Below, piece after piece: positions 14,969 to 64,000 of a DNA stretch of 64,000 nt. A program made the translations under genes and the position numbers. Numbering within the stretch: the stretch's first letter is position 1; each line of letters begins with the position of its first letter. This DNA comes from an uncultured Gammaproteobacteria bacterium (GTDB lineage: Bacteria; Patescibacteriota; Microgenomatia; CAYQLK01), in assembly GCA_964445355.1 (NCBI GenBank), contig CAYUKQ010000001.1, positions 12,277-76,276 of the forward strand. Direction: 5' to 3'. The notes beneath the pieces are model-generated. The model was not told the origin of the DNA and did not search any database. It worked only from the letters and a program-made list of their open reading frames with translations.

Positions 14969-14989
14969 GCTAAAATACCTAAAAAACAT

Positions 14990-15499: not shown

Positions 15500-15645
15500 A
15501 AAACCCTCACAGCTTGTCATTTCTTGCGGGCATGTTTGTTCATCGAGATACAACTCTCATGTCGGGTTTGGTGTCGGTTGGGCAGCGAGTTTGGTAAGAA
15601 GTTTTTAACTATAGGATAAGTATCTGTCTCTGATAGAATTAAACG

Positions 15646-16218: not shown

Positions 16219-16339
16219 AACTCAGAAAACACAATTACAAGATTGGCAAATAATTCAGCATTTCTTAAGTATTGATTCTTAATATCCACTTAAGCCGCCA
16301 TATATTTGACGGTTAACCATCTTAGATAACCAACAAAAT

Positions 16340-17200
16340 ATGTGTAGTAAGCGTAAACCGCTTAGTTTTGGATTTAGTTTCATCGAACTTATTGTCTCTA
16401 TAGGCATTTTTGGGGTATTAATTTCACTGATCATTGTCGCTGTCAATCCTGTAAGTCAATTTAAAAGAACTCGCGACGTGCAAAGAGCGTCTGATCTCAA
16501 AGCGATCCAAGTCGGGTTGGAGGCTTATAGGATAGCTAATAACTCTTACCCGTTATCCACACAAGATTTTAAAATTACCGGCACCGATTGGGGAGACAAA
16601 TGGGAGACCTATATGCAGCTTCCAGCCGACCCTTTGGAGGAATATAGTTATGCTTATGTTTCCCAGCTTGGAGACAGCTATCAAATTTATGCTCGGTTTG
16701 AAACCACTCCACCTCAGGAATTAGTCTGCACCCCAAACTGCGGACCGAACGGGCTGTACAATGCCGGTTTAGCCAGTGCAAATAGTTCACTTGCGGCAAT
16801 CATGTTCGTACCTTCACCGACACCAACCGCCACACCCACACCTACAGATCTTCCGCAAGGCAAAGTCTCGTATTTTGGAACTTCAGCAACTTACCCGAAG
16901 ATCATTCAGGTCGATTTTGATCCTCTCGATGTGCCGCTCAACCAGACACAATTACTGACTGCCAAAGTTTGGTCAGAAAATCCCGTTGAGACGGTTACGC
17001 TGCGCCTTGAATTGGATAACACGATTACCGAGACCTACCAGCTTGCCCAAACTTCAACAGTGATCATTAATGGAATATATCGCGATCTCTGGTCGATCAG
17101 TATTCCCCATACCGACAGTCATAATTCTCGGTATTCAGTGTATCTATCTGCCACAGACTCGCAAAGTAATAGTATAAATCCAGAAATAATTATCAGATAA
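16340..17200 (+). CDS. Type IV pilin-like protein (class III prepilin signal)
   Basis: G|FSFIELIVSIGIFGVLISLIIVAV has the prepilin peptidase site with Glu at +5. 286 aa with a Thr/Pro linker (PSPTPTATPTPT). Confidence 0.7.
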   Translation: MCSKRKPLSFGFSFIELIVSIGIFGVLISLIIVAVNPVSQFKRTRDVQRASDLKAIQVGLEAYRIANNSYPLSTQDFKITGTDWGDKWETYMQLPADPLEEYSYAYVSQLGDSYQIYARFETTPPQELVCTPNCGPNGLYNAGLASANSSLAAIMFVPSPTPTATPTPTDLPQGKVSYFGTSATYPKIIQVDFDPLDVPLNQTQLLTAKVWSENPVETVTLRLELDNTITETYQLAQTSTVIINGIYRDLWSISIPHTDSHNSRYSVYLSATDSQSNSINPEIIIR

Positions 17201-17202
17201 AA

Positions 17203-19317: not shown

Positions 19318-19366
19318 AAACAATCATTGACAATCCGTAGCTTTTTGCTACAATCCTATCTCAACA

Positions 19367-19618
19367 ATGAAAGACAAACCAAGGTTGTGTTTGTTAAATA
19401 TTCATAAGTCCACGGGTTCCCGAGCAGTCGCTCGGGTTTTTTTTGATCAAATTTCCCTTCAATCGCTCAAAAACAGCAAAGAGTTTGAGCCGTTTAACCC
19501 CCAGGAACTGCAGTCAATTTTGAGTCTTAATTTCCAAAACCTATCTGCCTTTAGTAGTTCCAACTCATCCAGTTGCGCAGCTTGTTCTCACAGTGGCTGT
19601 CACGGTAATTGCAGATAA
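19367..19618 (+). CDS. Putative RiPP (TOMM/LAP-type) precursor peptide A1. C-terminal core SAFSSSNSSSCAACSHSGCHGNCR. True start uncertain.
   Basis: ORF ends in a Cys/Ser-rich tail typical of azol(in)e precursor cores. Leader shares an N[SA]KEF[ED] motif with the downstream peptide. The terminator hairpin at 19419-19444 lies inside this ORF and no ATG/GTG follows it in frame (only a TTG 32 codons from the end). Start may be internal, or expression may depend on read-through. Confidence 0.4.
   Translation: MKDKPRLCLLNIHKSTGSRAVARVFFDQISLQSLKNSKEFEPFNPQELQSILSLNFQNLSAFSSSNSSSCAACSHSGCHGNCR
19419..19444 (+). terminator. Rho-independent terminator (downstream of surface-protein gene, upstream of or within the RiPP precursor region)
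   Basis: cccgagc-agtc-gctcggg perfect 7-bp stem followed by T8. Confidence 0.75.
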
Positions 19619-19645
19619 ATATTTGAAAGGAGGTGAAAATAAAAA

Positions 19646-19789
19646 GTGAACAAGACTAATAATAACGCTAAAGAATTCGACGAAGTCGTTTCTGAGGTTA
19701 AACTGTCCCAAGAAGAGATTAGTGATGCTACCAGTAGTGCATCTGCACAAGGATCATGTGGTCACACAGGTTCGAATTCAGGTAGATAA
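19646..19789 (+). CDS. Putative RiPP (TOMM/LAP-type) precursor peptide A2 (47 aa): VNKTNNNAKEFDEVVSEVKLSQEEISDATSSASAQGSCGHTGSNSGR
   Basis: Missed by the 60-aa ORF track. GTG start 8 nt after a strong SD (AAGGAGGTG). Acidic leader followed by a Ser/Thr/Cys/Gly-rich core. Lies immediately upstream of YcaO and SagB-type genes. Confidence 0.6.
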   Translation: MNKTNNNAKEFDEVVSEVKLSQEEISDATSSASAQGSCGHTGSNSGR

Positions 19790-19858
19790 AACTCCTTCTC
19801 TCATAGCTAGCTGAGTAATCAAGTGTGAGCTCACACAAATAAAAACAGGATAGTATTT

Positions 19859-21151
19859 ATGTCAAAACAAAGCTTGATCGAAAGCAACTTAGAGTTGCTA
19901 TATCAAAAATGCGTTTCTGCCCACGAAAAAACAAAATTTATATCAACCGTTCATCGGAGCTTTTTCTACAACGATGAACCCAAGCTGTATACGTTCATTT
20001 TGAACAGTAAAAACTCGTCCAAAAAATTCCGTACCAACGCCAGCGGCTCGGCCTGGGATGAAAAACTCGCTTTTATTAAAGGCTATATTGAAATGATAGA
20101 AAGATACGCACTGATCCCTTCAGATCAAGACCTCGATCATTTAGTTCTCTCGTCCGAGACTGGATTGCCTAAGGCAATAAAACTTAGCAAATTCATGAAA
20201 TTCTCACATAGCCAAATGATCGACAAGTTTTTTGCCCGAAAAGTCGCGACCGAGAATGACCCTTTATACTGGACTGAAGCTATTGATTTATGTGCCCGCA
20301 AAACCGTATATATTCCGGCTCAAACTGTTTTTTGTCCGTTCGGAAAAAAAGAAAAAATCATTCGCACGCCAATTTCAACGGGCGCATCAGCGGGTTTGGA
20401 CAAAAATTCAACAATAACCAGGGCAATTTTTGAAGTTCTTGAAAGAGACACGTTTATTTCATCCTATTTGGGTCGCCTTTCAGGTACGATAATTAAGATA
20501 AAAAACCCAAAAGGAGTGATCAAAGATTTACTGGACGAATTTAGCTTTTATTTACTCGAACCAACAATTATCAGATTGGACAACGATTATCATATTCCCG
20601 TCATACTGACAATTCTTACGGATCTGACTAAAAACAAGCCGGTCATTACCTTCGGACTCAAGTGTCATCCTGATCTGAACAGGGCGATTCAGGGTAGTTT
20701 GGAGGAATCATTTCATACTCGCGGATGGATGCGTGACGAATTGGCAAAATCCGATACTGTCTACATTAATTCACTAATCAAAAATATCGAACACACTTAC
20801 GAGCTCAAAGATCGCGGACTTATCTGGTCTCAACCTTTCGTTCTCAAAAACGTTGATTTTTGGCTTAATAACAAAAAAACATTTAATCTATCTCTCAAAG
20901 CAAGTTATCCAAAAATTCCATTAAATACTCTCCTTAAAAAGTTACAAGCAATCGGATTTGATATTTATCTCAAAGAACTAACTGATCCGGAGATCGCCAA
21001 ACTTGGTTTTTACGCCTGTAAGGTCATCATACCCCAAGCACAACCTCTTTACCTGGAAGAGGATTTTCAATATTTGGACACCAGCCGTATTGAAAAGATC
21101 GCAAAACATAAGATCACCAAGCTTAATACATTTTTACAACCCTTCCTATGA
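19859..21151 (+). CDS. YcaO-domain cyclodehydratase (SagD/TOMM D-protein-like), stand-alone
   Basis: N-terminal NASGSAWDEKLAFIKGYIEMIERYA and central PISTGASAGLDKNSTITRAIFEVLERDTF match the YcaO signatures (ASGxG...ERY and SNG-AxG...E--ERD). 430 aa. No fused E1-like domain. Confidence 0.75.
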   Translation: MSKQSLIESNLELLYQKCVSAHEKTKFISTVHRSFFYNDEPKLYTFILNSKNSSKKFRTNASGSAWDEKLAFIKGYIEMIERYALIPSDQDLDHLVLSSETGLPKAIKLSKFMKFSHSQMIDKFFARKVATENDPLYWTEAIDLCARKTVYIPAQTVFCPFGKKEKIIRTPISTGASAGLDKNSTITRAIFEVLERDTFISSYLGRLSGTIIKIKNPKGVIKDLLDEFSFYLLEPTIIRLDNDYHIPVILTILTDLTKNKPVITFGLKCHPDLNRAIQGSLEESFHTRGWMRDELAKSDTVYINSLIKNIEHTYELKDRGLIWSQPFVLKNVDFWLNNKKTFNLSLKASYPKIPLNTLLKKLQAIGFDIYLKELTDPEIAKLGFYACKVIIPQAQPLYLEEDFQYLDTSRIEKIAKHKITKLNTFLQPFL

Positions 21152-37559: not shown

Positions 37560-38198
37560 ATGAGATTTTCACTAATCGGGGTAATTTTATTAAATACTGG
37601 AATATTTTTATCTTTACTCATTTATCCAATTTTATTTACTTCGCAAAATAAGTCTTTTTATCAGTATCATTTTAATAATTTACCGCTTAACACAGGTTTT
37701 GATTATCAGACCAACCTTGAAATCTCAAACAAGATCACAAACTACCTGATTACAGGTCAAGGTTTACCTGTTGAATTAATGAGTTCTCGTGCCGTTGTTC
37801 ATATGCTTGACGTGCGGGATATTTTTTACAGAGCAATATTTTTGCCAGTTTTATTAATTATCTCAGCTATGTTTTTCTTAATTATGTCTGGGAAACAGAT
37901 TAAATACCGACACATCATACCTGCTCCACTGATAATTTTGTCATTTTTATTAACATTACTTCTTGGACAGCAAAAAGTTTTTAATTTTATATTTCTCAAA
38001 TTTCATTTACTTTTCTACACTAACGATCTGTGGATGCTTGATGACAATGATTTGCTATTAAAACTCTACCCCGAGGAATTTTTCTTTCGACTAACGTATT
38101 TTAGTGGTGCAATTACGCTATTAGTATCGTTCATTCTTCTTGCTGTTCTTATTTATAATCAAAATAAAGAAAAAAATAATGCAGTTAGAAATCGGTAA
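37560..38198 (+). CDS. Hypothetical integral membrane protein (about 4 TM). Position next to lgt suggests a possible DUF1461/Lit-like lipoprotein-processing role (speculative).
   Basis: 212 aa, hydrophobic helices at both ends. Overlaps the lgt start region. No motif-level support for function. Confidence 0.45.
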   Translation: MRFSLIGVILLNTGIFLSLLIYPILFTSQNKSFYQYHFNNLPLNTGFDYQTNLEISNKITNYLITGQGLPVELMSSRAVVHMLDVRDIFYRAIFLPVLLIISAMFFLIMSGKQIKYRHIIPAPLIILSFLLTLLLGQQKVFNFIFLKFHLLFYTNDLWMLDDNDLLLKLYPEEFFFRLTYFSGAITLLVSFILLAVLIYNQNKEKNNAVRNR

Positions 38199-38937
38199 TT
38201 TTTCAATCAGAGTATATGGGATTATTTTTGCTCTTAGTGTTTTAGTTGCATACTACACAATCCAGAAACTTTTTAAGCTTTCACAGCCGGGATTTAAAAA
38301 TATTGATAGTTTACTATTCACCGTTTTATTAACTGGTTTGTTAGGTGCGCGTCTTTATCACGTCGTTGATATTTGGCAATACTATTCTGTAAATCCTTTG
38401 GAGATCATTGCAATTTGGAATGGGGGAATTGGTATTTATGGCGGTCTAATAGGAGGATTTATTGGATTGTTTGTCTACACAAAAGTAAAAAAACTTCCGG
38501 TTTTGTCGATATTAGACATATTGACTCCCGGCGTAGCGCTCGCACAGTCTATTGGTCGATGGGGAAACTACTTTAATCAGGAGGCCTACGGATATCCGAC
38601 AAATGTTTTTTGGGCGATAAAAATCGACCCGGTCAACAGGTTGCCGGGGTTTGAGAAATATCAGTATTTCCACCCCACTTTTCTGTATGAATCCCTTTTA
38701 TTAATGCTGGCCTTTTTACTGTTGGTTTTTATTTTTAAAAAATTTTACCAATCAACTGGATTGGTTTTTGCTTCGTATCTAATTTTGTACGGTATTACTC
38801 GTTCAATAACAGAGCAATTCAGAATTGATACCTGGCAACATGATGGAGTCAAGATCGCTCAAGTGATTTCTTTGTCCTTTATCCTGGTTGGCTCATTTCT
38901 GCTTTGGCATTTCAAAAGACTCTCTATGAGTCGTTGA
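38179..38937 (+). CDS. lgt: Prolipoprotein diacylglyceryl transferase
   Basis: Lgt signature GRWGNYFNQE, Y-rich N-terminal helix, and the conserved motif order. Start taken at MQLEIG (the ORF track begins at 38140). Confidence 0.85.
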   Translation: MQLEIGNFSIRVYGIIFALSVLVAYYTIQKLFKLSQPGFKNIDSLLFTVLLTGLLGARLYHVVDIWQYYSVNPLEIIAIWNGGIGIYGGLIGGFIGLFVYTKVKKLPVLSILDILTPGVALAQSIGRWGNYFNQEAYGYPTNVFWAIKIDPVNRLPGFEKYQYFHPTFLYESLLLMLAFLLLVFIFKKFYQSTGLVFASYLILYGITRSITEQFRIDTWQHDGVKIAQVISLSFILVGSFLLWHFKRLSMSR

Positions 38938-41529: not shown

Positions 41530-43719
41530 ATGTCAGAGAGTAGTTTTCGGACTAATCAAATTCCAAACATGACCATGCTGGAGCTTCGTGTTCCACGAGA
41601 TTCAGAAGTTTCTTGGGAAGCTACTGTACAAATGTTGACGAATCTTAAAGGAAACTTTGGTTTTGATAAATACGCAAAACTCTTTCGCCGCCACATCCCG
41701 TCAATGTCGCTCGAAATCGCAACAATTAATCAATCAATTAAGTTTTTTGTTATCGTTCCTACCAACTTGCGATCTTTTTTCGAAAGTCAGCTAATTTCTC
41801 AATACCCTTTAGCGGTTGCGGTTGAAGCAGAGAATTATTTAACAGATTGGTTTTCTCAAGGCTACATCATGTCCGGCGAGTTGGTTTTGGGTAAGCCGGC
41901 ATATTTTCCCATCCGCACAATGAAAGATTTTGATGCATCAGTTGATCCGCTTTCCTCGGTACTTGGTGTAATGTCCAAAACACTACCTGAGGAGAAAATT
42001 CTGATCCAAATTAACTTATCTGGAGCAAGCGGTAGCTGGTCAAGTACCGCCAAGGCAATATTAAATCCGCCAAAAGTTGAGGGGCAGACCCCATCAAAAG
42101 TCACAGGGGCAAATTTTATCGAGGAAAAAATCTCACTTCCGGGATTCAATACAGGCATACGGATAGTTGTCGGCGCGCCAACTGAATCGCAGGCAAAAGG
42201 ACTTTTGGACTCCGTTGCCGGATCATTCGGAAGTTATGCAAATGGCGAAGGCAATTCTCTCCGACTTTCCAAACCCAGCAATAGAAAAAAGAAAAAATTT
42301 ATTCAAGCGATCTATGACCGTAGTGCTGATCAAATACCATCAGCACAAGTTCTGAGTACCAAAGAAGTGGCCTCTCTCTGGCATCTGCCGTCAAAAAGTC
42401 TCACTACGATCCAAAATTTATCATGGGGAACATCTGTACTTTCTGAATCACCGGAAAATCTTCCGACCGCCGAAAATATCGAGCGGGATACTATTAATTA
42501 CTTCGCTAGAACCGAACACAAAAACCAGATCAAAACATTTGGGATCAAGCATAATGACAGACGAAGACACTTCTATGTTGTCGGAAAATCCGGTACTGGT
42601 AAATCTACCTTAATTGCAAATATGGCAATTAACGATATTCGCAATCGTCAGGGGCTTGCGATCGTTGATCCGCACGGCGACCTTTGCGACATTCTTCTTG
42701 ATTACATCCCTTCATATCGCGTCAACGATGTAATCTATTTTGACCCTTCCGATCAATCTCGAACTTTTGTTATTAATCCACTTGAAGTAAAAAATGAAGC
42801 TCAAAAAGAACTGGTTGCTTCAGGTATTGTCGGAATATTTAAAAAACTCTTTGCTTTTTCCTGGGGACCCAGATTGGAGCATATCCTTCGTAACACGATT
42901 CTAACTTTAGTCAATGTACCTGACTCATCTTTTATGGATGTTCCGCGAATACTCACTGACAGGGAATTTCGTGCCGAAAAACTCAAATATATAGATGATC
43001 CTGTCTTGCTTCGTTTTTGGAGAGATGAAATTGACAATGTCCAGCCAAGACAATTGGAAGAGGCCGTCGCGCCGATTTTGAACAAAGTTGGACAGTTCTT
43101 ATCAAGCAAGACCATTAGAAATGTCGTTGGTAGGCCCAAGTCGACGATCGATATTGAAGAAGTTATGAATTCTGGAAAAATTCTTTTACTCAATTTGTCT
43201 CAGGGTTATCTTGGTGAAGACTCTGCGGCACTACTTGGTGCGATGATTATCACAAAATTTCAAATTGCAGCCATGAACAGAGTTTCGCTTAAAGAAGCTG
43301 ACAGAAAAGATTTTTTCCTTTACGTTGATGAGTTCCAGAACTTTGCAACTGAATCTTTTGCCAAAATTCTTTCAGAGGCGAGAAAATATCGTCTGTGTTT
43401 GATCATGGCCAACCAGTTCATGTCGCAAGTGCCGGAAGATATTCGCAATGCAATTTTGGGTAATGTTGGATCGCTGGTTACTTTTTTGGTCTCTGCTCAA
43501 GATGCACCCATACTTTCCAGGGAGTTCTCCGATATTTATAAAGAACCAGAGTTCACTTCGCTAGCTAATTTTCAAATCTTACTAAGACTACTTATTGATG
43601 GGCACGCATCTAGACCATTTTTTGCAAACACTCTTCCGTTACCGCGGTCAAAAACTGAGCGAAGAGAAAAAGTGCTTGAACAATCAAGAGCAAAATACAC
43701 CAGAGAAATTACGGTCTAG
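41530..43719 (+). CDS. P-loop ATPase of the TraG/TraD/VirD4 (T4SS coupling protein) / HerA-FtsK-like class
   Basis: Walker A VVGKSGTGKST followed by IVDPHGDL. Walker B FFLYVDEFQNF. 729 aa. N-terminal about 340 aa of unknown fold, with no obvious TM helices. Confidence 0.5.
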   Translation: MSESSFRTNQIPNMTMLELRVPRDSEVSWEATVQMLTNLKGNFGFDKYAKLFRRHIPSMSLEIATINQSIKFFVIVPTNLRSFFESQLISQYPLAVAVEAENYLTDWFSQGYIMSGELVLGKPAYFPIRTMKDFDASVDPLSSVLGVMSKTLPEEKILIQINLSGASGSWSSTAKAILNPPKVEGQTPSKVTGANFIEEKISLPGFNTGIRIVVGAPTESQAKGLLDSVAGSFGSYANGEGNSLRLSKPSNRKKKKFIQAIYDRSADQIPSAQVLSTKEVASLWHLPSKSLTTIQNLSWGTSVLSESPENLPTAENIERDTINYFARTEHKNQIKTFGIKHNDRRRHFYVVGKSGTGKSTLIANMAINDIRNRQGLAIVDPHGDLCDILLDYIPSYRVNDVIYFDPSDQSRTFVINPLEVKNEAQKELVASGIVGIFKKLFAFSWGPRLEHILRNTILTLVNVPDSSFMDVPRILTDREFRAEKLKYIDDPVLLRFWRDEIDNVQPRQLEEAVAPILNKVGQFLSSKTIRNVVGRPKSTIDIEEVMNSGKILLLNLSQGYLGEDSAALLGAMIITKFQIAAMNRVSLKEADRKDFFLYVDEFQNFATESFAKILSEARKYRLCLIMANQFMSQVPEDIRNAILGNVGSLVTFLVSAQDAPILSREFSDIYKEPEFTSLANFQILLRLLIDGHASRPFFANTLPLPRSKTERREKVLEQSRAKYTREITV

Positions 43720-53359: not shown

Positions 53360-54457
53360 ATGGTTTTTAAAAAAATCCTAATATCTAAATATCTGATTTT
53401 TTTGCTTTTACTCCTGATCGTATCTTTATTTCTAATAATTATCTTTAGAAGTAACTATCTCGACTTTCTAAGATCAAATCAGTCACTCAATAATTCTTTG
53501 ATCCAGTGTCAGGAAAATAAAAATTATATTAAAAACACCTCTTGTATTAAAAAGAATTTGGAATCATTAGTAATAAATTATGGTCCTTCCCACACATTAA
53601 AATTTGCCAAAGATAATAACTTACAAGTCTCTTACAACTTAAATAATAACATTGAATGTCATGATTTTGCTCATTTGCTTGGAACAATCGCTGGAGAAGT
53701 CACCAAAGATATTGGTGAATCTATAGATCGATGCGGGGAGGATTGCTCAAGTGGTTGTTATCATGGTTTTTTTGAAGGAATAAAGAAAAATCCACTGATC
53801 CCAGATTTGGATTATGAAAATATCTGTCTCAGACAGGTTGCTAAAGAGGAATTAGTTTCCGGATGTCTTCATGCTCAAGGACACTATTTTATGGAATTAA
53901 ATCAAAATATTCTCTCCGACGGTTTTAAAAAATGTCTTGCATTAAAAACAACGGACAAAAATAAAAAATCTTGTCTTTCTGGAGGATTTATGGAGGCTCA
54001 AACACTCAGAGACAATAAAATAATGACCCCATCTACTCCTAATATGCCTGCTCCGGAAGATTATTTCCAATTTTGCCAAAAATTTAGTGGTCTCGTACTT
54101 GATTATTGTTTACAGGACGGTGGCTCATACGTTTATCGATTCACCCTTAACCCTAAAATGGCGACCAATTTCTGTATTGATTATGTCAGTAAATCAAATC
54201 AAGAAGGGTGTTTATCTTCGGTTGGGGGATTTTTTCACCGTAAGAACCCAAATATTTATTTAGAATACATCTCAAAATACTGTCGTTTAGCAAAAAACGA
54301 TTTTACATTTAGTTGTTTTGCAGGCGGAGTAGAGAGTATTCATCTTGGGGGTCAAGATATTCAGCCGTTAATTACCATTTGCATCGAACAAAAAATTCTT
54401 CCAGAACAAGATTGTCAAAAACTCTTAACCATAAAAAATAACAAGACAAGCAATTAA
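53360..54457 (+). CDS. Hypothetical Cys-rich (about 20 Cys) membrane-anchored extracytoplasmic protein
   Basis: N-terminal TM (IFLLLLLIVSLFLIIIF) followed by Cys spaced throughout (e.g. DRCGEDCSSGCYHGF). Confidence 0.5.
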   Translation: MVFKKILISKYLIFLLLLLIVSLFLIIIFRSNYLDFLRSNQSLNNSLIQCQENKNYIKNTSCIKKNLESLVINYGPSHTLKFAKDNNLQVSYNLNNNIECHDFAHLLGTIAGEVTKDIGESIDRCGEDCSSGCYHGFFEGIKKNPLIPDLDYENICLRQVAKEELVSGCLHAQGHYFMELNQNILSDGFKKCLALKTTDKNKKSCLSGGFMEAQTLRDNKIMTPSTPNMPAPEDYFQFCQKFSGLVLDYCLQDGGSYVYRFTLNPKMATNFCIDYVSKSNQEGCLSSVGGFFHRKNPNIYLEYISKYCRLAKNDFTFSCFAGGVESIHLGGQDIQPLITICIEQKILPEQDCQKLLTIKNNKTSN

Positions 54458-54551: not shown

Positions 54552-56627
54552 ATGTTCGCTGCCCAAAAATTTTTACCGACCAATATAAGATCGATTATTC
54601 TACTGATCGCCCTGATTCTCTTTACTTTTGCAAATATCTCTGCTCATCTTTTTATTAAAAACGCATTAACCTCAAGTCTTGATCGAGAATTGGGAAAATC
54701 TAATCGTTCTCAAGCCGAAATCGTAGCATCAAGATTTAGTTCAGAAATTGAGAAGCATTTTGACAGTTTGGCCAGCTTAGAGAACTACTATTTAAACAAT
54801 CAGTCTAGTGTTGATATTGATAATCAAAAAAATTATGCCCAAAGTTTAATTAGTTCCAAAAGCTCTTTCAATCAAATCGGATTATTGAATTCAAATCTGG
54901 AACCAGTTGTCGTTTCAGATAGTTCTATACCAGATAAGGATTTTGTAAAAGACTTTCTGACAATTCCTAACATTCAAGATTCTATAAAAGCGAACACAAT
55001 TTATAAGGAAGAGTTTGTTGGCGGGCCGCTCGAACTACCCAGTAAAAGAACACTCTTTGTTCTTTTTCATCCAATTAGTATAAGTGGCACATTTGAAGGA
55101 CTGTCGTTTGGAGTAATCGATATTAACAGATTATCACGCAATGTATTTTCATCCAGCAATGCCGAGAAATTTAACGTAGCAATTCTTGTAAATAATAATA
55201 ATCTTTTAATTTATGACGCAAGCGAAGTGCAGAAAACACATCAAATTGATATTGTTTCTGAATTTGGCAAAACAGTATTTGATTTAAAATTTTATCCAAA
55301 AAACTTTATTACAGAATCGGGGCAAATTGCCATCCAAATAGTGTATGCCTCGATCATTGCGATTCAAACACTCGCGGTTGCGATATTGTTGATCTTTATG
55401 ACACAAACTCACGAATTAGAAAAAAAGGTTTCTGAGCGCACAGCTGAGATCTTACAAAAAAACAAATTAATTACCGAAGAAGAAGAAAAAATTAAGAAAA
55501 TTATCAATAATACCCCCGTCGGAATAATGGCGATTAGGAATTCTGATAAAAAATTAATTTTTTACAATCAAAAAATTACAGATTTTTTAGGTAACGACTT
55601 AGACTCTATTACGACGCTCGACGAAGTCATCGTTTCGCTTTCACCAACTAATAAACAAGGCGAAGCATTTAATGTTCGCCTCCTCCCTTACAATCAAACA
55701 GACTTAACTAAAAAAACATCCATGACCGACGAACTAATACTACAAATTAACGGTGAGCAAAAACAAGTAAAAATGGTAGCCGTGCCAATCCGTCATGAAG
55801 ATGGACAAAATGAAACATTGGTGGTTATAACGGACTTAACTGAAGAGGCAAAACTGGCTGAAAATCTAAAAAAAGTAAACACTGAACTATTAAATATGGA
55901 TAAGCAAAAGGACGAATTTTTATCTGTCACTTCACACGAGTTAAGAACCCCAATGACAACTATAAAAGGATATGTTGATATGATTCTTAATGGTGATGCA
56001 GGTGAAATTAATTCTGAGATTAAACAGTATCTGACTGAAGTCTATAAAAGCGTGAATAGACTAACCTCACTTGTAAACAATATTCTGACCGTCTCTAGAC
56101 TTCAAAACAAAGCACTTCAATTCAACCTCAAAGCTGTAAATATTAATCAAATCATTTCCGACAATCTGGAATCTTGGAGAGTACTTGGGGGTGGAAAACC
56201 TATCGAATTTAGTTTTATTCAACCCAATACTCCACTTCCGGCAGTCATGGCAGATCCTGATAAAATCATCGAAATATTAAACAATTTTATTTCTAATGCA
56301 TTTAAATACACCGAAAAGGGCAAAGTTTCGATATTTTTGAAAAACGACGAAAATTATGTTTATGTTTCAATTCAAGATACTGGTATCGGGATAGAGAGTA
56401 ATGAAGTCGAAAAAATATTCCAAAGGTTTTACAGAATTGATAATACGAAGGCCAGAAACCAAGAAGGCACAGGATTAGGGTTGTATATTGCAAAAGATTT
56501 AGTTGAAAAAATGCACGGCAAAGTATTTGTTCATTCATCAGTCGGATCTGGGTCAACGTTTTCATTCTCATTACCAATTTTTAAAGAAGACAAGGTTCCA
56601 CTGCGTCGCGATACGCTATATCAGTAA
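54552..56627 (+). CDS. Sensor histidine kinase (periplasmic sensor domain, TM, PAS-like, HisKA, HATPase_c)
   Basis: H-box LSVTSHELRTPMTTIKGY. N/G boxes (NAFKYTEKGKV, QDTGIGIE, GTGLGLYIAK). Two TM segments flank a roughly 250-aa extracytoplasmic region. Confidence 0.85.
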   Translation: MFAAQKFLPTNIRSIILLIALILFTFANISAHLFIKNALTSSLDRELGKSNRSQAEIVASRFSSEIEKHFDSLASLENYYLNNQSSVDIDNQKNYAQSLISSKSSFNQIGLLNSNLEPVVVSDSSIPDKDFVKDFLTIPNIQDSIKANTIYKEEFVGGPLELPSKRTLFVLFHPISISGTFEGLSFGVIDINRLSRNVFSSSNAEKFNVAILVNNNNLLIYDASEVQKTHQIDIVSEFGKTVFDLKFYPKNFITESGQIAIQIVYASIIAIQTLAVAILLIFMTQTHELEKKVSERTAEILQKNKLITEEEEKIKKIINNTPVGIMAIRNSDKKLIFYNQKITDFLGNDLDSITTLDEVIVSLSPTNKQGEAFNVRLLPYNQTDLTKKTSMTDELILQINGEQKQVKMVAVPIRHEDGQNETLVVITDLTEEAKLAENLKKVNTELLNMDKQKDEFLSVTSHELRTPMTTIKGYVDMILNGDAGEINSEIKQYLTEVYKSVNRLTSLVNNILTVSRLQNKALQFNLKAVNINQIISDNLESWRVLGGGKPIEFSFIQPNTPLPAVMADPDKIIEILNNFISNAFKYTEKGKVSIFLKNDENYVYVSIQDTGIGIESNEVEKIFQRFYRIDNTKARNQEGTGLGLYIAKDLVEKMHGKVFVHSSVGSGSTFSFSLPIFKEDKVPLRRDTLYQ

Positions 56628-56680
56628 ATAAACACATTCTGGTGTTTATATGGTAGCTTTAATTACGTATAATTTAATCT

Positions 56681-57208
56681 ATGACTAACCCACCCGATCA
56701 AAGCAACCAAACTCAACCAGCAAATACTTTGATTACACCACAGCCGGTCAACACCACTCCTGTTAAAGCGGTTAACGATCAGGCTACCGTCACTGCATCT
56801 AATTCCGCTACCCTAATTCAAGATAATCAATCAGGGCAAGGTGTCAAAACCGTGAAAAATATTCTTTTGATCGAAGATGATCCTGTCATTATTCGCATGT
56901 ATAGTACGAAGCTTACAAACTCTGGCTATTTGGTCAAGGAAGCATCTAATGGTGAGGAGGCCATTAATATCCTCGGTAACTACAAACCAGACATCATCCT
57001 ACTAGATCTAATGCTTCCCAAAATCGACGGATTCGGGTTTTTACAGCAAGCCCGTGAGAAAATTACTAATGTTCCGGTTATCATATTAACTAACCTAAGT
57101 CAGGACACTGACAAATCAAGAGCCAAAGATTTGGGTGCGGTAGATTTTTTAGTCAAGGCTGATATTACTCCACAAGATGTCGTGAACACGATCCAAAAGT
57201 ACATTTAA
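56681..57208 (+). CDS. Response regulator, receiver domain only (CheY-like), with low-complexity N-terminal extension
   Basis: ILLIEDDPVII...DIILLDLMLPKIDG contains the phospho-acceptor Asp context. No output domain. Confidence 0.8.
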   Translation: MTNPPDQSNQTQPANTLITPQPVNTTPVKAVNDQATVTASNSATLIQDNQSGQGVKTVKNILLIEDDPVIIRMYSTKLTNSGYLVKEASNGEEAINILGNYKPDIILLDLMLPKIDGFGFLQQAREKITNVPVIILTNLSQDTDKSRAKDLGAVDFLVKADITPQDVVNTIQKYI

Positions 57209-57212
57209 TGCA

Positions 57213-58931
57213 ATGCTCCTGCCCAATGAAGATCTAAAAAAATCACTACTAGAATCAGGTTATGTCAACGAATCCCAATATGCTGATGCACTAAATGCGT
57301 CAAGAATGTTTAAGCAGCCGGTAATAGAAATTATTCTTTCGCGCGGGTTAATTCAAGAAGAGACGCTGGGTGAAGTTCTTTCAAAAACTTCAGGATTTCC
57401 CTTTGCTCCCTTAAAAACCAAAATTGATCCCAAAATTCTTAACATTATCCCCCCGGGGTTCGCTAACAAAAACCGTTGCATCATATTCGATATCAAAGAT
57501 AACGAATTGCAAATCGCTACATCCGATCCGGAAAATCATACAGCGTTTAATCAAATTCAGCTTAAAACCGGCAAAAGTATTAGGTTGTTTTTTACTTTGC
57601 CTTCGATTCTCAACAAGGCTATGGGTCAATACAGGCAGGATATTGCTGAAGGTTTCAAATCCGAAATTACCAAAACCGCTTCACTTGCGGCAAGCTCAGC
57701 CGGTCCCAAAATAGGAGAAAATATTAATGTTGTTAGAACTTTTGACAAAATTTTGCAATTCGCTGCAGCCAAAAATGCTTCAGATATTCACATTGTCGGC
57801 TATCAATCAAGGGTGATTATTAGGTTTAGGATCAATGGTAGACTAAAAGATATCTTAGAGCTACCAAAAAGTATCCAATCAGGTTTGATCGCCAGAATTA
57901 AAATCCTTTCTTCACTCAAGATCGATGAACACCGTGTTCCTCAAGACGGGCGATTCAGATTCGACTACTTAACAGAACAGTACTCAGTTCGTGTTTCAAT
58001 TTTACCTTTATCCACTGGGGAGGATGCAGTCCTTCGTCTACTTTCTGACTCATCCGCCCCAAAAAGCCTTGAAGAAATTGGTCTCCGGGGCAAAAATTTA
58101 GAATTAATGAAAATTGAATTAGAGAAACCTCAAGGTATGATTCTATCAACCGGACCGACCGGCTCAGGTAAAACGACCACGCTATACAATCTCTTAAAAA
58201 TTCTTAATAAAGAAGATGTAAATATTATTACGATTGAAGATCCAGTTGAGTACACGATCGATCGTGTTAATCAGATTCAGGTTAATTCGACCACTGGTCT
58301 TACATTTGCATCCGGACTAAGATCAATACTCCGTCATGATCCGGATATTATTTTGGTGGGTGAAATTAGAGATGCTGAAACTGCTGATATCGCCATTCAC
58401 TCAGCTCTAACCGGGCACTTGGTATTGTCAACGTTACACACCAACGACGCGCCCACAGCTATTCCCAGATTTGAAGATCTTGGAATTGAACCATTCTTAT
58501 TAGCATCAACATTATCAGTAATTATTGCTCAGCGACTTGTAAGAAGATTAGACCCCAACAAAATAGAAAGTTATCAGGTTCCACAGAGTATTATCGATCG
58601 TTTTAGTCAATATCTCGGTTCAGAGGCGTCAACACAATTATTAACCAAAACCAGCTTTTATAAACCAAGAGAAGATGTCGATCCGGAAGAAGTGTTTATT
58701 GGTAGAATTGCTGTATTCGAAATCCTTAAAATAACTCCTAAAATCCGTGAACTTATTCAAAACAAAGCATCGTTAGAAGAGTTAACTGCTCAAGCCAGAA
58801 TTGAAGGCTTTACTACAATGTTAGAAGATGGGATCGATAAAGCCGCCGCTGGTTTAACAACTTTAGAGGAAGTTCTTGACGCAGTATCAGAAAGCGTTGA
58901 TTATGACGATCAATCTGAAAAAAAATCATAA
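57213..58931 (+). CDS. pilB: Type IV pilus assembly / type II secretion ATPase (PilB/GspE family)
   Basis: N-terminal T2SSE_N-like domain. Walker A GPTGSGKTTT. Asp box, Walker B ILVGEIRD, His box HTNDAPTAIPR. Confidence 0.9.
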   Translation: MLLPNEDLKKSLLESGYVNESQYADALNASRMFKQPVIEIILSRGLIQEETLGEVLSKTSGFPFAPLKTKIDPKILNIIPPGFANKNRCIIFDIKDNELQIATSDPENHTAFNQIQLKTGKSIRLFFTLPSILNKAMGQYRQDIAEGFKSEITKTASLAASSAGPKIGENINVVRTFDKILQFAAAKNASDIHIVGYQSRVIIRFRINGRLKDILELPKSIQSGLIARIKILSSLKIDEHRVPQDGRFRFDYLTEQYSVRVSILPLSTGEDAVLRLLSDSSAPKSLEEIGLRGKNLELMKIELEKPQGMILSTGPTGSGKTTTLYNLLKILNKEDVNIITIEDPVEYTIDRVNQIQVNSTTGLTFASGLRSILRHDPDIILVGEIRDAETADIAIHSALTGHLVLSTLHTNDAPTAIPRFEDLGIEPFLLASTLSVIIAQRLVRRLDPNKIESYQVPQSIIDRFSQYLGSEASTQLLTKTSFYKPREDVDPEEVFIGRIAVFEILKITPKIRELIQNKASLEELTAQARIEGFTTMLEDGIDKAAAGLTTLEEVLDAVSESVDYDDQSEKKS

Positions 58932-58938
58932 ATAAAAA

Positions 58939-60018
58939 ATGAATTTCTCAATACCGCTCTTTAACCCGAATCCTATACCGACAAAAACTAAAATTGAATT
59001 TTTTCAGAATCTAGCAACCATGATTGATGCTGGCATCCCAATTGATCAAGCAATCAGATCAATTGTTGAGGATAATGAAAAATCATCAAAAAATATAGTA
59101 TTTAACACTCTTGTTAAAAACCTTGAATCCGGCAAGTCACTTAATGAGGGTATGGCGAATTTCCCAATGTACTTCAGTAGATCTGAAGTATCCGTTGTCA
59201 AAGCTGGTGAAGTTGGTGGTACACTGACCGACTCACTAAGAATTTTAGTTAGAACCCTAAAAGAACAGGAATTTATTAAAAAATCAATTAAATCCGCCAT
59301 GACATACCCAGGTATGGTCATGGGGGTGATGGCAGTGGTAAGTACAGTTCTGGTATTGTTTGTGATTCCCAGACTGGGTGAAACGTTTCTAAGATTAAAT
59401 GTCAAAATTCCATTACCGACCCAGATTCTAATACATGTATCTCTTTTTCTTCAAAAAAACCAAATACTTTCGATTCTTGGAATCATATTGATTACTGTAC
59501 TGTTGATACTATACGCTCGAAGCAATCTTGGTAGGAAATCGCTTATTTGGATTTTATCCAAAATACCTGTAACAAAACGTATTATGCTTGAAATCGATCT
59601 GGCTCGAGTTTCAACCATTTTTTCTTCTCTACTAACTTCAGGAATTCCAATTCTTGAAGTTTTAGATCTTACCAGGGAGACATTAATTTTACCCGAGGTC
59701 AAACGGAGTATTACTCAAATATCACGAGATTTAGCCTCTGGTTCTACTTTAGAAGCGGCATTCGACAAACACCGCAAAATATATCCTTCGACCTTTCGGC
59801 GGATATTGGCAACAGGAGAAAAATCAGGAACTCTGGAAACATCGATGTCGCAAGTATTTGAATATTATTCAACTTCGGTAACAGATAAGCTGAAAAACAT
59901 TTCAGTAATTATTGAGCCTGTTATTTTGATAGTGATCGCACTCGGAGTAGGTGGGTTGATTATTTCTTTTATTGGTCCAGTTTATGAACTTATCGGATCG
60001 TTAAACAAAGCAGTATGA
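58939..60018 (+). CDS. pilC: Type IV pilus / T2SS platform protein (PilC/GspF family, single-repeat form)
   Basis: GspF-domain hallmarks (MIDAGIPIDQAIRSI) and 3 TM helices. 359 aa. Confidence 0.8.
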   Translation: MNFSIPLFNPNPIPTKTKIEFFQNLATMIDAGIPIDQAIRSIVEDNEKSSKNIVFNTLVKNLESGKSLNEGMANFPMYFSRSEVSVVKAGEVGGTLTDSLRILVRTLKEQEFIKKSIKSAMTYPGMVMGVMAVVSTVLVLFVIPRLGETFLRLNVKIPLPTQILIHVSLFLQKNQILSILGIILITVLLILYARSNLGRKSLIWILSKIPVTKRIMLEIDLARVSTIFSSLLTSGIPILEVLDLTRETLILPEVKRSITQISRDLASGSTLEAAFDKHRKIYPSTFRRILATGEKSGTLETSMSQVFEYYSTSVTDKLKNISVIIEPVILIVIALGVGGLIISFIGPVYELIGSLNKAV

Positions 60019-60503
60019 TGCCTAATATAAGTAGGATTAAGACCGGATTTACACTGGTAGAGGTTGTTCTGGTTGTGACAATTTTAGGTCTTGTCGTTGT
60101 ATTTAGCTCAGTTGTATTTAGTAATCAGCAAAACCAAACTAGTTTGGAAAGCACGATACTTGAAGTGAATTCATCAATCAGAGAGGTGCAAAATAAATCC
60201 TTGTCTCAATCTCAGGATATTTCCAGTGACGAAAATTTTGGCATATATTTTTCAACTAATTCATATACTACTTTTAAGGGAAACAGCTATTCAGTCAATA
60301 ACCCAACGAATTTTACGGTTAATTTTGGATCAGGTATCATACTTTCTTCAATCAATTTTCCCAACTCACAACTTATCTTCGATCGGCTTACGGGCAAGCT
60401 AACATCCTATTCAGATTCACAAAACACAATAGTATTCTCAACATTTGATAATGCAACAAAGACACTAACAATCAATCCATATGGCGCAATTACGATTGAA
60501 TAA
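60015..60503 (+). CDS. Prepilin-type (pseudo)pilin
   Basis: G|FTLVEVVLVVTILGLVVV N-terminal methylation motif with Glu+5. Confidence 0.75.
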   Translation: MMPNISRIKTGFTLVEVVLVVTILGLVVVFSSVVFSNQQNQTSLESTILEVNSSIREVQNKSLSQSQDISSDENFGIYFSTNSYTTFKGNSYSVNNPTNFTVNFGSGIILSSINFPNSQLIFDRLTGKLTSYSDSQNTIVFSTFDNATKTLTINPYGAITIE

Positions 60504-62337
60504 AGGAATTGCCCTAATAGAATTATTAATTGCGATTGCAATATCATCGATCATTATCGGTTTAGCGATTCAAGTCATGACTCTGGTTAGGTCTACTTTT
60601 TTATCATCAAATATCCGATATACATCTAGGGATTTACTTGATAGTACTGTTGATATTATCCGATCGATCAAAGAGTCTGATTGGGATATTCTCACAATTG
60701 ACGGAGTTTATCACCCGGTGATATCCGGAGAGCAATGGACTCTTACTCCTGGCGACGAACAGATCTCGGGAACCCAGTTTAATAGATCAGTTGAAATACT
60801 CAGTGTTTGTCGAGATGAATCACTTGCTGTGGTTACATGTCCAGCGGGCACGAACGACCCAGATTCCAGGACGGTAAATATTGATATTTCCTGGACTAGC
60901 CCAATTCCAGGATCAATCAGCAGTAGTCAGTTATTAACCAGGTACGCAGGCAATGGTTTTTGGAATCAGTCCACTACGACAGATTATAATTCAGGTGAAA
61001 AAAAGAACCTTCTTACCACCACTGTCGATGATGGGGAGTTGGCACTGGAATCAAACAACGGGCCGGGGTGGTCATCATCAAGTCGGGTAGGCAACATTAA
61101 TATTACTAACTCCCAAGTTGTGAATAGTCATTATATTTACGATAGTAAGCTTTTTCTTGTCAAAGACAATGATCCTGGTGGTCAAGAACTATTAATTTAC
61201 AGTCTGTCTAATCCGGCAAGTCCAGGACTTATTTCTGCAACCGAGCTTGGTGCAAACGGCAAAAAAATTATTGTTCAAAACGGTTATGCATATGTCGCCA
61301 CATCGGATGATAGCCAAGAATTAAAAATATTTAACATTTCCGACCCAACTTCACCTTTACCAATTGGTAATCTCAACTTAAGTGGTTCAACGGATGCCAC
61401 GAATCTCGCACTTTCTGGTTCTAGACTATATCTAATTAGAGCGCTTGATGTAACCGAGAACGAATTTTACACAATAAACATATCCAACCCCGCTCTTCCA
61501 TCACTTGTCTCCTCCCAAAATTTTACCGATACCATAAGTGATATTGCTGTCGACGGAAAATATGCTTATATATCAACATACATTAATAACGCCGAAGTAA
61601 CCGTGATCGATCTTACGATAAATTATCCTACAGACAATAATATTGTTGAAGAATACGACATCAGTGGCAATGAAGATACCAGAGCAATTAATTTTCTCTA
61701 CCCTAATATTTATGTTGCTTCATCGCAAAACAAGATCTACATTCTCAACGCCCAAAACCCCCAAGCTATTTCAGAGCTTACCCAGTTTAATCTTAATAAT
61801 ATCGGCGATATCTATATAGCAGACAATAAAGCATTTTTTACAGACTTAACTTCGGGCACAGGACTCTATATTTATGATATTTCAACACCTTCATCGCCCT
61901 CAAGTGTTGGTAATCATGCTGTAGGTGCTAACGCATATACAGTTATTACAAACGGCTCATATGCTTACGTACTTAACCAATCGAACTCTCGCGAGTTAAT
62001 CGTGGTTAATGGCGGCGGTACCGCAAACGTGACATATGGAGAATTTATTTCCCAAACTTTTGATACTGGTAATGGTTTGACTACAATTCAATCAGTTTCT
62101 TGGAATGCTGACTTGCCCGTCGGTACACAAATTGAATTTCAGATCGGCGTTAACTCACTCGGTTATGCGTTTGAGTTTGTTGGCCCGGACGGGACACCGG
62201 ACACCTATTTCACCTCCACAGGTTCTTACCCACTATCATCTTCCGATGGTCAATATATTAAGGTCAAGGCCATTCTGTCTGGTGACGGAACAGCCACACC
62301 AACCATTGAAGATATTAGATTAACTTATATACAGTGA
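60481..62337 (+). CDS. Prepilin-type N-terminus fused to an LVIVD-repeat beta-propeller domain (putative tip/minor pilin adhesin)
   Basis: N-terminal KGIALIELLIAIAISSIIIGLA prepilin-like helix. At least 5 LVIVD-type repeats (NGYAYVATSDDSQELKIFNISDPTSP; SRLYLIRALDVTENEFYTINISNPALP; GKYAYISTYINNAEVTVIDLT; LYIYDISTPSSPS; SYAYVLNQSNSRELIVVNGG). 618 aa. Confidence 0.7.
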   Translation: MAQLRLNKGIALIELLIAIAISSIIIGLAIQVMTLVRSTFLSSNIRYTSRDLLDSTVDIIRSIKESDWDILTIDGVYHPVISGEQWTLTPGDEQISGTQFNRSVEILSVCRDESLAVVTCPAGTNDPDSRTVNIDISWTSPIPGSISSSQLLTRYAGNGFWNQSTTTDYNSGEKKNLLTTTVDDGELALESNNGPGWSSSSRVGNINITNSQVVNSHYIYDSKLFLVKDNDPGGQELLIYSLSNPASPGLISATELGANGKKIIVQNGYAYVATSDDSQELKIFNISDPTSPLPIGNLNLSGSTDATNLALSGSRLYLIRALDVTENEFYTINISNPALPSLVSSQNFTDTISDIAVDGKYAYISTYINNAEVTVIDLTINYPTDNNIVEEYDISGNEDTRAINFLYPNIYVASSQNKIYILNAQNPQAISELTQFNLNNIGDIYIADNKAFFTDLTSGTGLYIYDISTPSSPSSVGNHAVGANAYTVITNGSYAYVLNQSNSRELIVVNGGGTANVTYGEFISQTFDTGNGLTTIQSVSWNADLPVGTQIEFQIGVNSLGYAFEFVGPDGTPDTYFTSTGSYPLSSSDGQYIKVKAILSGDGTATPTIEDIRLTYIQ

Positions 62338-62855
62338 TGAAAAATATAATAAACAGATTACGATTTTTTAAGGTTACCAGTCGCCAAGGCACAACATTTG
62401 TCGAGGTATTGCTATACATTGCATTGCTTTCAATCGTTATTGTTTTTATAACTGACATTATTCTACAAACGCTTAACTTTATGATTGAATCTCGGAATAT
62501 CTCCTATTTAGATTCGGACGCTCGATTTATTAGCACGAAGTTAAGAAACGATCTACGAAAAGCCGATACGATTTCAGTACCTACAACAATTGGAGAGACC
62601 TCCAATAGTATTACTTTTGAATATGAGAGCGATAACTATACTTATAGCCTTAGTGATGGAATTTTACAGATCACCGATCCGAATGGCACATACCGTATTA
62701 ATTCTGACCAAACTACGGTTAGCAGTTTTTCAGTTACAAATAGGAGTTATGCTCTTGGTGCCACTACGCTCGATTTTGATATAGTCTTAAATTCCAGAAC
62801 TGTTTCAAGCAGTATAGATCAAATTAACCTTAATTTTACTGTCAATAATCGATAA
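62334..62855 (+). CDS. Prepilin-type pseudopilin
   Basis: QG|TTFVEVLLYIALLSIVIV with Glu+5. ATGA overlap with the upstream gene. Confidence 0.65.
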   Translation: MMKNIINRLRFFKVTSRQGTTFVEVLLYIALLSIVIVFITDIILQTLNFMIESRNISYLDSDARFISTKLRNDLRKADTISVPTTIGETSNSITFEYESDNYTYSLSDGILQITDPNGTYRINSDQTTVSSFSVTNRSYALGATTLDFDIVLNSRTVSSSIDQINLNFTVNNR

Positions 62856-62860: not shown

Positions 62861-63238
62861 ATGAATAACAAAAATAATCTTGGATCAGCATTACTTGCAG
62901 TTATTATTGTTTCGGCCATAGCCACGGTAATTTTTACCTCCGCGTCAACCACCTTAATTGGACAGATGCTACAGTCGCAAACATCAATTAACAGTACTAG
63001 ATCATATCTACTCACAGAATCAGGGATCGAAGAAGCGATTCTTAACCTATTACGTAATCAAAATTATGCTGGTGGAACTTTTAATTTAGACAATAATGAG
63101 ATTACAATTAACGTAAGTGGATCAAACCCAAAAACTATTACATCGACAACGGGGTTTGGTAATACTAAAAGAACAATTGAGGTTGTTGTCTCATACTCTG
63201 AGAACAATTTGTCGGTAATTTCCTGGAAAGAAATATAA
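62861..63238 (+). CDS. Pilin-like protein with N-terminal hydrophobic helix (non-canonical: no Glu+5)
   Basis: LGSALLAVIIVSAIATVIF N-terminus. Sits inside the pilus operon. Confidence 0.5.
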   Translation: MNNKNNLGSALLAVIIVSAIATVIFTSASTTLIGQMLQSQTSINSTRSYLLTESGIEEAILNLLRNQNYAGGTFNLDNNEITINVSGSNPKTITSTTGFGNTKRTIEVVVSYSENNLSVISWKEI

Positions 63239-63241: not shown

Positions 63242-64000
63242 ATGTCCATACTGCCCAATAGTCAAATATCACTCCTTATCAATAAACAGAAACTGACCAT
63301 TTTTGAAAAAATTGGTGAAAACGGTAAGGTTATAGATTTTAATCAATCTAAAGAAAAAATTGTCAGTGAAATCAGCGCTGCAATCAATTCAAAACAATCT
63401 CCCAATAAACAAATTAATCTTAACCTAATTTTTGGTTCAGATTTAACCTTCATCTATTCATCAAAAAAGTCCCCGAGTGAGCTTTTTGTACTCTCTGATC
63501 AAGTTTTACCCTACACAACAGATGAAGCGGAATACTTTGTTTCACTTGGAAAAGCAGTGAATACATTATTTGCATGTCCTAATCCAGTCAAAAATCTGCT
63601 CTACGAATCACTGGGTAAGAATCTAATAATTATTAAGAATTATCCGTTAATTTTTTTATTTTCACCAAAATATTTAATTAAAATTCCTAATCAGTCCAGG
63701 TTTGTATTAACAGTCTTAGAAGTGAGTAATCAAATTTTTACAATGGTTAACTTCAAAGACGAGTTGGTGGATTTTCAAATTTATTCCAAATCAGACATTA
63801 ATTTATTGATTAATAATTTAGTTAAATATTACAATTCTGACCCTGACTTTAATATTCAAATAGATACTATCGTCGTTAACTCAGAAACTAATATTCAATT
63901 CGACAACATTCGAACTATAAGACTTACTCAAAACATTGAATCAATTGATAGTGTAATAATTTCAAATTTTCATAAGGCTAAGCACCCAACGCTGATTACA
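63242..64000 (+). CDS. Hypothetical protein, 3'-truncated by window end. Operon position suggests a pilus-assembly (PilM-like?) role.
   Basis: Open reading frame from ATG 63242 to the end of the window with no stop. N-terminal ISLLINKQKLTIFEKIG loosely resembles the PilM start. Confidence 0.5.
   Translation, partial: MSILPNSQISLLINKQKLTIFEKIGENGKVIDFNQSKEKIVSEISAAINSKQSPNKQINLNLIFGSDLTFIYSSKKSPSELFVLSDQVLPYTTDEAEYFVSLGKAVNTLFACPNPVKNLLYESLGKNLIIIKNYPLIFLFSPKYLIKIPNQSRFVLTVLEVSNQIFTMVNFKDELVDFQIYSKSDINLLINNLVKYYNSDPDFNIQIDTIVVNSETNIQFDNIRTIRLTQNIESIDSVIISNFHKAKHPTLIT

Follow-up and report, generated by a model that had tools for sequence, protein, structure and literature searches.

A type IV minor pilin with an LVIVD propeller head in a patescibacterial pilus operon

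The window, the whole 64,000-nucleotide stretch of DNA that we analysed, contains a type IV pilus operon in which genes for an assembly ATPase (pilB) and a platform protein (pilC) are followed by a set of minor-pilin genes, one of which encodes a long, propeller-bearing protein that we refer to as the LVIVD pilin (Table 1). PilB and PilC stand directly upstream of this gene and prepilin-like ORFs lie on both of its flanks, in agreement with the pilus-operon setting described in an earlier note on this DNA. The genes are closely packed: the first minor-pilin gene overlaps the LVIVD gene by 23 nt, the stop of the LVIVD gene overlaps the start of the next ORF, and the packing is equal in an 86%-identical orthologue (Logan contig L001). 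Of the four minor-pilin genes behind pilB-pilC, that of the LVIVD pilin takes second place, an order that appears to match the canonical H-I-J-K layout of the core minor-pilin complex that primes assembly and caps the filament (PMC9934059).

Table 1 Features of the pilus operon and of the LVIVD pilin gene, with positions in the window
Feature	Coordinates	Strand	Basis
Histidine kinase and response regulator directly 5′ of pilB; possible regulators (candidate link)	54552..57208	+	ORFs; HisKA/HATPase_c and Response_reg on the L001 orthologues
PilB-type assembly ATPase	57213..58931	+	PF00437 (T2SSE), E=2.5e-117, plus MshEN domain
PilC-type platform protein	58939..60018	+	PF00482 (T2SSF), E=4.6e-46
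First minor pilin, 162 aa, GspH/ComGD-like (GFTLVE)	60015..60503	+	N_methyl 22.5 bits; ComGD (E=6e-7) and GspH (E=2e-5) each short of the cut-off
LVIVD pilin, complete gene for a modular type IV minor pilin of 618 aa (pilin module, seven-bladed LVIVD propeller, C-terminal β-sandwich); stop codon within coordinates	60481..62337	+	ORF, Pfam, AlphaFold2 model, family
Leader peptide of class III signal, aa 1–9 (MAQLRLNKG), predicted cleavage after Gly9	60481..60507	+	Sequence; G-x-x-L-[IV]-E motif in homologues
α1 helix of mature pilin, aa 10–66, with Glu5 (= E14) and hydrophobic α1N	60508..60678	+	Model helix 7–66; E14 conservation; profile match to solved pilin N-termini
Globular pilin β-sheet module, aa 67–163; Cys110/Cys120 pair; invariant R111 and D126	60679..60969	+	
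Linker, aa 164–198, lower model confidence	60970..61074	+	pLDDT 66–88 (full model), 52–64 (N-terminal model)
Seven-bladed LVIVD β-propeller, aa 199–512	61075..62016	+	
C-terminal β-sandwich module, aa 513–618, conserved GPDGT...TP.L.D....Y, without Pfam family	62017..62334	+	Strands 519–617 in model
Third minor pilin, 173 aa (GTTFVE), J position	62334..62855	+	Sequence; family matches weak
Fourth minor pilin, 125 aa, without Glu5 (G/SALLA): GspK/PilX-like cap	62861..63238	+	Sequence; weak GspK match, E=0.002
Gene at PilM position, running past window end	63242..64000	+	No family match; placed by position

The best named relatives of the SecA protein encoded in the window belong to Ca. Woykebacteria, Curtissbacteria and Daviesbacteria (55–61% identity). 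On these relatives we assign the window to Patescibacteria, nearest the Microgenomates-type candidate phyla, an origin that the earlier note had also favoured; assignment to Gammaproteobacteria, the label on the closest genomes, was dropped as an artefact in view of these SecA relatives. The lipoprotein enzymes Lgt and Lit are encoded in the window and the operon contains no gene for a secretin, the outer-membrane pilus channel, a combination that suggests a cell without an outer membrane.

The N-terminus of the LVIVD pilin carries the features of a class III signal, with a 9-aa basic leader, Gly-1, Glu+5 and then a hydrophobic stretch (MAQLRLNKG/IALIELLIAIAISSIIIGLA, with the same site also given as MAQLRLNKG/IALIELLIAIAISSIIIGLAI), and the predicted mature N-terminus is IALIE-LLIAIAISSIIIGLAI. 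Three homologue alignments (A1, A2 and A4), which extend down to about 22% identity, keep Glu14 in 90% or more of their sequences, and orthologues share the G-x-x-L-[IV]-E motif together with the same type of leader, as do 78 of the 144 top cluster representatives newly listed by an exhaustive search. A profile of the family matches solved pilins in their N-terminal segments (Geobacter pilin, E=2e-4; PilA, 0.017). In an AlphaFold2 model of the whole protein (mean pLDDT 87, pTM 0.71; residues 1–200 modelled alone, mean pLDDT 79.6), a 60-residue α1 helix (7–66) is followed by an antiparallel sheet (75–153) in the lollipop fold of pilins, and the nearest fold to the β-sheet module is GspI. The prepilin-like N-terminus proposed earlier is upheld by these observations, and the structure prediction that had been suggested as a check recovers both the pilin stalk and the propeller. 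Prepilin peptidase (Peptidase_A24) was absent from the ten candidate membrane ORFs scanned in the window.

A reading in which this N-terminus serves as a common Sec signal or as a membrane anchor, and in which the protein is no pilin but a surface LVIVD protein that happens to adjoin pilus genes, is very improbable. The reading gains something from the Pfam N_methyl score (PF07963; 20.3 bits against a cut-off of 21.2, E=3.9e-4) and the NCBIfam TIGR02532 score (15.0 against 16.3), both of which fall slightly short, and from the many LVIVD proteins that are ordinary Sec-signal surface proteins (PMC2447325). Against it stand Gly-1 and Glu+5 within a conserved motif, the 60-residue helix leading into a pilin-fold sheet, the match of the family profile to solved pilins, the fixed slot of the gene between other prepilins, and the near-complete lack of the C-terminal module in LVIVD proteins that have no pilin module. 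A Sec signal in place of the pilin helix had been named beforehand as the observation that would overturn the proposal; on inspection this does not hold, because the N-terminus of the LVIVD pilin behaves as a pilin. We dropped the Sec-signal reading on the combined weight of signal motif, Glu conservation, fold, profile match and synteny.

Downstream of the linker, the Pfam LVIVD family (PF08309) matches at 42.8 bits (cut-off 20.2; E=3.2e-11), and three stretches pass; of the two Pfam scans recommended earlier, the LVIVD scan thus clears its cut-off and the N_methyl scan stays below. Seven mutually alignable repeats of 42–48 residues (about 43 aa) follow the pattern ..P..[IV]....L.G....[IV].[IV].G.YAY[VI]A......EL.[IV].[ND][IV]S[ND]P, and the AlphaFold2 model places 28 strands between residues 201 and 510, equivalent to seven blades of four strands. 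Pfam score, repeat alignment and model together bear out the LVIVD β-propeller claimed in the earlier note. Its count of 'at least five' repeats is true as a minimum but is an undercount, because seven repeats align and the model has seven blades. With a pilin module (1–163), a linker and then an LVIVD propeller (199–512), the protein is a modular pilin as defined by Raynaud et al. 2021, and the product of the 618-aa ORF is a type IV pilus minor subunit with a propeller head. The propeller is followed by a β-sandwich of about 100 residues (strands 519–617) with a conserved GPDGT...TP.L.D....Y motif, a module absent from the earlier note. This module has no Pfam family match in the scan of the 618-aa protein, and a search of a large protein database with the module alone (62017–62334) gave one candidate and no match.

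Fold searches with the full model returned generic propellers and no pointer to function. We weighed an enzymatic role for the propeller, such as that of a metal-dependent hydrolase which the pilus would deliver to act on the host envelope, and regard this as extremely improbable. The propeller's matches do not exceed those to propellers that are not enzymes, the homologue alignments contain no conserved His/Asp/Glu cluster in the propeller, and the positions that are invariant or nearly so (A270, Y271, P340, Y411 and E505) are structural repeat residues; the enzyme reading was dropped because catalytic-type residues are not conserved. A propeller that serves as the DNA receptor of a competence-type pilus, binding extracellular DNA for uptake, is improbable. 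Its sole basis is a fold match to YncE, to which identity is just 12% and which WD40 propellers approximately equal in score; no ComEA or ComEC is found among the operon ORFs, and T4P-2 pilin mutants of TM7x have no competence defect (PMC11623550).

The position of the gene is shared well beyond close relatives. Three distant relatives share the order PilB-(PilT)-PilC-pilin-[LVIVD pilin]-pilin-pilin-(PilM)-major pilin(s): a contig of 1.12 Mb (L002, 31% identity), a Patescibacteria metagenome-assembled genome (L003, 28%) and the locus of a 965-aa two-propeller relative (P0024). A positional equivalent of the third minor pilin is present in all three and in L001. The fourth minor pilin likewise lacks Glu5 in L002 and L003, the two lineages with readable sequence. 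At the PilM position, the equivalent gene in the P0024 locus bears PF11104 (PilM_2), and in L001 a GspG-like major pilin of 154 aa (L001 13918–14382) comes next after the corresponding gene. The nearest fold for the pilin module of the LVIVD pilin is GspI/XcpV/EpsI, which is the I subunit in the HIJK complex of minor (pseudo)pilins. The predicted GspI-like fold is in line with the I slot that the gene occupies, an assignment that sequence models do not confirm.

A word-indexed search recovered 133 homologues, nearly all of them annotated with LVIVD, and HMMER, run exhaustively on 1.84 billion cluster representatives, recovered 679 at E<1e-30. Source names of the homologues include 'Patescibacteria group bacterium', and a single-protein locus scan found close relatives plus one Nomurabacteria locus. 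We built domain HMMs from the family alignment and scored them on 266 fetched proteins. Among these, the pilin module and C-terminal module enclose one propeller in 44 proteins, two in 45, three in 14 and four in 2, with one further protein each carrying five and seven. The C-terminal module is paired with the pilin module in 108 of its 110 carriers, and LVIVD proteins that have no pilin module possess it in only two exceptions. Near confinement of the C-terminal module to pilin-module proteins indicates that the unit running from pilin module to end module is constant and that propeller number is the variable.

We compared the operon genes with those of relatives whose LVIVD pilin is about 68% identical. 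Identity is 88% for PilB, 86% for PilC, 83% for SecA, 79% for the first minor pilin, 71–75% for the third, 68% for the LVIVD pilin, 67% for the fourth and 40% for the gene at the PilM position. The variability comparison suggested in the earlier note thus sets 68% for the LVIVD pilin beside 67–79% for the other minor pilins and 86–88% for PilB and PilC, a difference in rate that falls short of hypervariability. Against the 86% orthologue, dN of the LVIVD gene is 0.089 compared with 0.035–0.058 for neighbouring genes; dS is saturated in this comparison (>2 or undefined), so dN/dS is unusable and we rely on the dN values alone. The LVIVD gene evolves moderately faster than its neighbours and is the fastest pilin at short range. 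Its modules diverge evenly (62–75% identity in close relatives, 21–30% in distant ones), with the exception of the N-terminal helix, which is more conserved (86% among close relatives). With dN far below the saturated dS, the gene clearly appears to be under purifying selection, without a hypervariable patch. The earlier proposal of a host-recognition determinant is therefore weakened: the rate is only moderately raised, the domains diverge evenly and dN is low. Together with a three-module design that is kept in distant lineages, these features would agree better with a structural role or a conserved ligand than with a host key that differs between strains.

The combination of a pilin N-terminus with LVIVD repeats has been recorded before. 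In Raynaud et al. 2021 (PMC8179133), Dataset S1 contains at least 8 + 8 + 7 proteins in which IPR012902 is followed by 1, 2, 5 ... 12 copies of IPR013211, the LVIVD repeat (PMC10210494), and the paper singles out an 860-aa pilin of Ca. Falkowbacteria that has 12 copies of IPR013211, a motif 'of unknown function'. The architecture is the same as here, a class III signal/pilin motif and then LVIVD repeats, and the named example is likewise from Patescibacteria. That catalogue lists the architecture alone, without structure, operon position or C-terminal module (PMC8179133), and a search of its type could have missed the LVIVD pilin of this window, which scores slightly under the N_methyl cut-off. 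Our literature search found no paper on LVIVD pilins as such.

The closest tested analogue is PilX2 of the saccharibacterium TM7x (Nanosynbacter lyticus), a minor pilin with a heptabladed propeller (PMC11623550). When PilX2 is deleted, binding falls from about 10.6% of host cells to 4.6%, and pili still form (PMC11623550). The PilX2 propeller is built from RCC1 repeats, unlike the LVIVD propeller here, a distinction drawn from its published description (PMC11623550); RCC1 has no family match on the 618-aa protein, in which the Pfam scan finds LVIVD and N_methyl only. PilX2 also lacks a predicted PilD signal (PMC11623550), whereas the LVIVD pilin has the canonical Gly-1/Glu5 motif. Pilin plus LVIVD is thus an architecture known since the 2021 catalogue, with a tested analogue of another repeat type in Saccharibacteria. 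What we add is the GspI-like module and its place at the I slot, an end domain that is conserved, propeller numbers that range from one to seven, and the wide extent of the family, a refinement of a known kind that reveals no new principle.

Two other systems present comparable modules by different means. In Streptococcus sanguinis, PilB (vWA) and PilC (lectin) are modular pilins whose adhesive modules are exposed at the tip and which work with a GspI-like PilA (PMC8179133, PMC9934059). The S. sanguinis proteins graft vWA or lectin modules onto a pilin, whereas the modules here are an LVIVD propeller and a β-sandwich, and the GspI-like module of the LVIVD pilin itself bears the appendage, unlike in S. 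sanguinis, where the GspI-like PilA is separate. In Pseudomonas, Neisseria and Myxococcus, the tip propeller of PilY1/PilC is presented by four core minor pilins and has roles in adhesion and assembly (PMC8179133, PMC9934059). PilY1 is a non-pilin propeller adhesin of diderms, said to be missing from monoderms (PMC9934059). The likeness to PilY1/PilC lies in a β-propeller gene inside a minor-pilin operon. The propeller of PilY1/PilC is C-terminal on a protein that is not a pilin, which the LVIVD pilin is; Pfam scan and fold searches give no PilY1-type domain, and membership of the PilY1 family was dropped on that ground.

Among the organs by which ultrasmall episymbionts may attach to their hosts, type IV pili have the best support. 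We propose, with a probability of about 60%, that the LVIVD pilin is a modular minor pilin of the tip complex whose propeller and end domain are exposed for putative ligand binding. Prepilin peptidase would remove the 9-residue leader, after which the α1 helix would allow the protein to associate with the remaining three minor pilins within the membrane, at the platform. The resulting complex would prime pilus growth and remain at the tip, where we place the LVIVD pilin because an appendage of about 450 residues fits nowhere else. The propeller and terminal β-sandwich would then be held out from the cell towards a ligand that most likely belongs to the surface of a host bacterium. Such a protein would do the job of PilY1 in diderms or of the modular pilins in S. 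sanguinis, a parallel that we draw because the operon suggests neither an outer-membrane pilus channel nor PilY1. The description 'tip adhesin' in the earlier note is a reasonable inference as to binding, given a bulky protein, a set of four minor-pilin genes of which the last lacks Glu5, and published analogues (PMC8179133, PMC9934059, PMC11623550). The end domain, at the far end of a propeller chain of variable length, could be the binding unit, with the propellers as spacers.

The serious rival is a mainly structural or priming subunit with no specific host ligand, whose head would form a bulky plug or cap to start assembly, to prevent complete retraction or to help the filament through wall and S-layer. 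We consider this possible, if on the unlikely side. It resembles the assembly role of PilY1 with minor pilins, and would account for a slot in the minor-pilin set that is fixed across distant lineages, for even conservation of all domains with dN far below dS, and for the tie between C-terminal module and pilin module. However, TM7x cells that lack the propeller-bearing PilX2 still form pili and host binding falls (PMC11623550), and a range from one to seven propellers suits adjustable reach or avidity more than a plug of fixed geometry.

A wider extension of the tip-complex reading is doubtful at present. The LVIVD-pilin family may be a Patescibacteria-wide replacement for PilY1 in which an I-type minor pilin bears the tip effector, the end domain is the receptor-binding unit and propeller number sets reach; if so, the LVIVD-pilin gene would be a primary determinant of the hosts to which an episymbiont can attach. 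Independently of this extension, an LVIVD propeller is built into a canonical, predicted-cleavable minor pilin at a fixed operon slot in uncultured Microgenomates-like lineages. Residues 199–618 form a defined fragment for ligand tests, and the gene offers an easy marker in genomes by which pilus tips can be compared throughout the phylum.

Separately, kinase- and response-regulator-like genes also lie upstream in L002 and in the P0024 locus.

Pilins of the tip set other than the LVIVD pilin itself can also be modular. In each of three lineages, the window and the distant relative loci L002 and L003, the fourth minor pilin after pilB and pilC has a mature N-terminus without Glu5 (G|SALLA in the window, G|QTLVA in L002 and G|AAALI in L003), resembling in this respect the GspK/PilX-type caps. 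In L003 this protein reaches 320 amino acids and includes a PA14 carbohydrate-binding domain, showing that modularity is also possible for other members of the tip set. Among the fetched LVIVD homologues, P0084, P0089, P0093, P0102 and P0105 form a separate group of proteins of about 730–750 amino acids, one of which is named Ca. Parcubacteria. Their hydrophobic N-terminus lacks Glu5 (for example, ...MLTAVMFFLFATSIIVLGTSSSVLREMQ), raising the possibility of an LVIVD fusion to K-type minor pilins, which may thus be carriers of LVIVD propellers as well.

Features of the window and of the relative loci (L002 and L003 positions are those of each locus)
Feature	Position	Strand	Remarks
521-aa single ORF	11866-13431	-	VKOR (vitamin K epoxide reductase) domain at the N-terminus, combined with a dihydroorotate dehydrogenase domain
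tRNA-Gln	14113-14184		
Second GspG-like prepilin, orphan, 286 aa	in 16340-19317	+	GFSFIE; Pfam T2SSG E=5.5e-5, TIGR01710 3e-9
704-aa ORF	in 16340-19317	+	Follows the orphan prepilin; a weak arabinanase-like stretch only
Lit (lipoprotein intramolecular transacylase) and Lgt	37560-38937	+	Adjacent, ORFs overlapping
729-aa protein	41530-43719	+	TrwB/TraG-type coupling-protein and HerA/DUF87 ATPase signatures
Cys-rich 365-aa membrane-anchored ORF	53360-54457	+	Between secA and histidine kinase
Histidine kinase (691 aa) and response regulator (175 aa)	54552-57208	+	Immediately upstream of pilB
Fourth minor pilin, window	62861-63238		Glu5 absent
Fourth minor pilin, L002	10404-10787		Glu5 absent
Fourth minor pilin, L003	10430-11392		Glu5 absent

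In L002 and at the P0024 locus, which is the pilus operon of a 965-aa two-propeller relative, pilB is likewise preceded by response regulators or kinases, and this recurrence suggests that the pilus is under dedicated regulation. The response regulator of the window has a long N-terminal extension rich in Thr, Gln, Pro and Asn. The neighbouring Cys-rich ORF had no family match in Pfam or NCBIfam, and is only 66% identical to its counterpart in the close relative locus L001, where the surrounding genes exceed 90% identity.

Within positions 14000-20000, the orphan prepilin and the 704-aa ORF both fall in a stretch with a GC content of 0.44–0.46, compared with about 0.38, and this higher-GC stretch starts beside the tRNA-Gln gene. 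The region may represent either an island gained by acquisition or a further locus connected with pili. Elsewhere in the window, the 729-aa protein is possibly an ATPase that translocates DNA, with potential relevance to DNA uptake or to a transfer process resembling conjugation, and the 521-aa ORF looks like the dehydrogenase fused to a quinone-linked membrane module. The Lit and Lgt lipoprotein-modification pair is typical of monoderms.

The best named relatives of the SecA encoded in the window are Patescibacteria. The closest genome records found with the LVIVD pilin as query (L004–L007; 63–69% identity to this protein) bear the title ‘uncultured Gammaproteobacteria bacterium’, and are probably mislabelled TPA assemblies.
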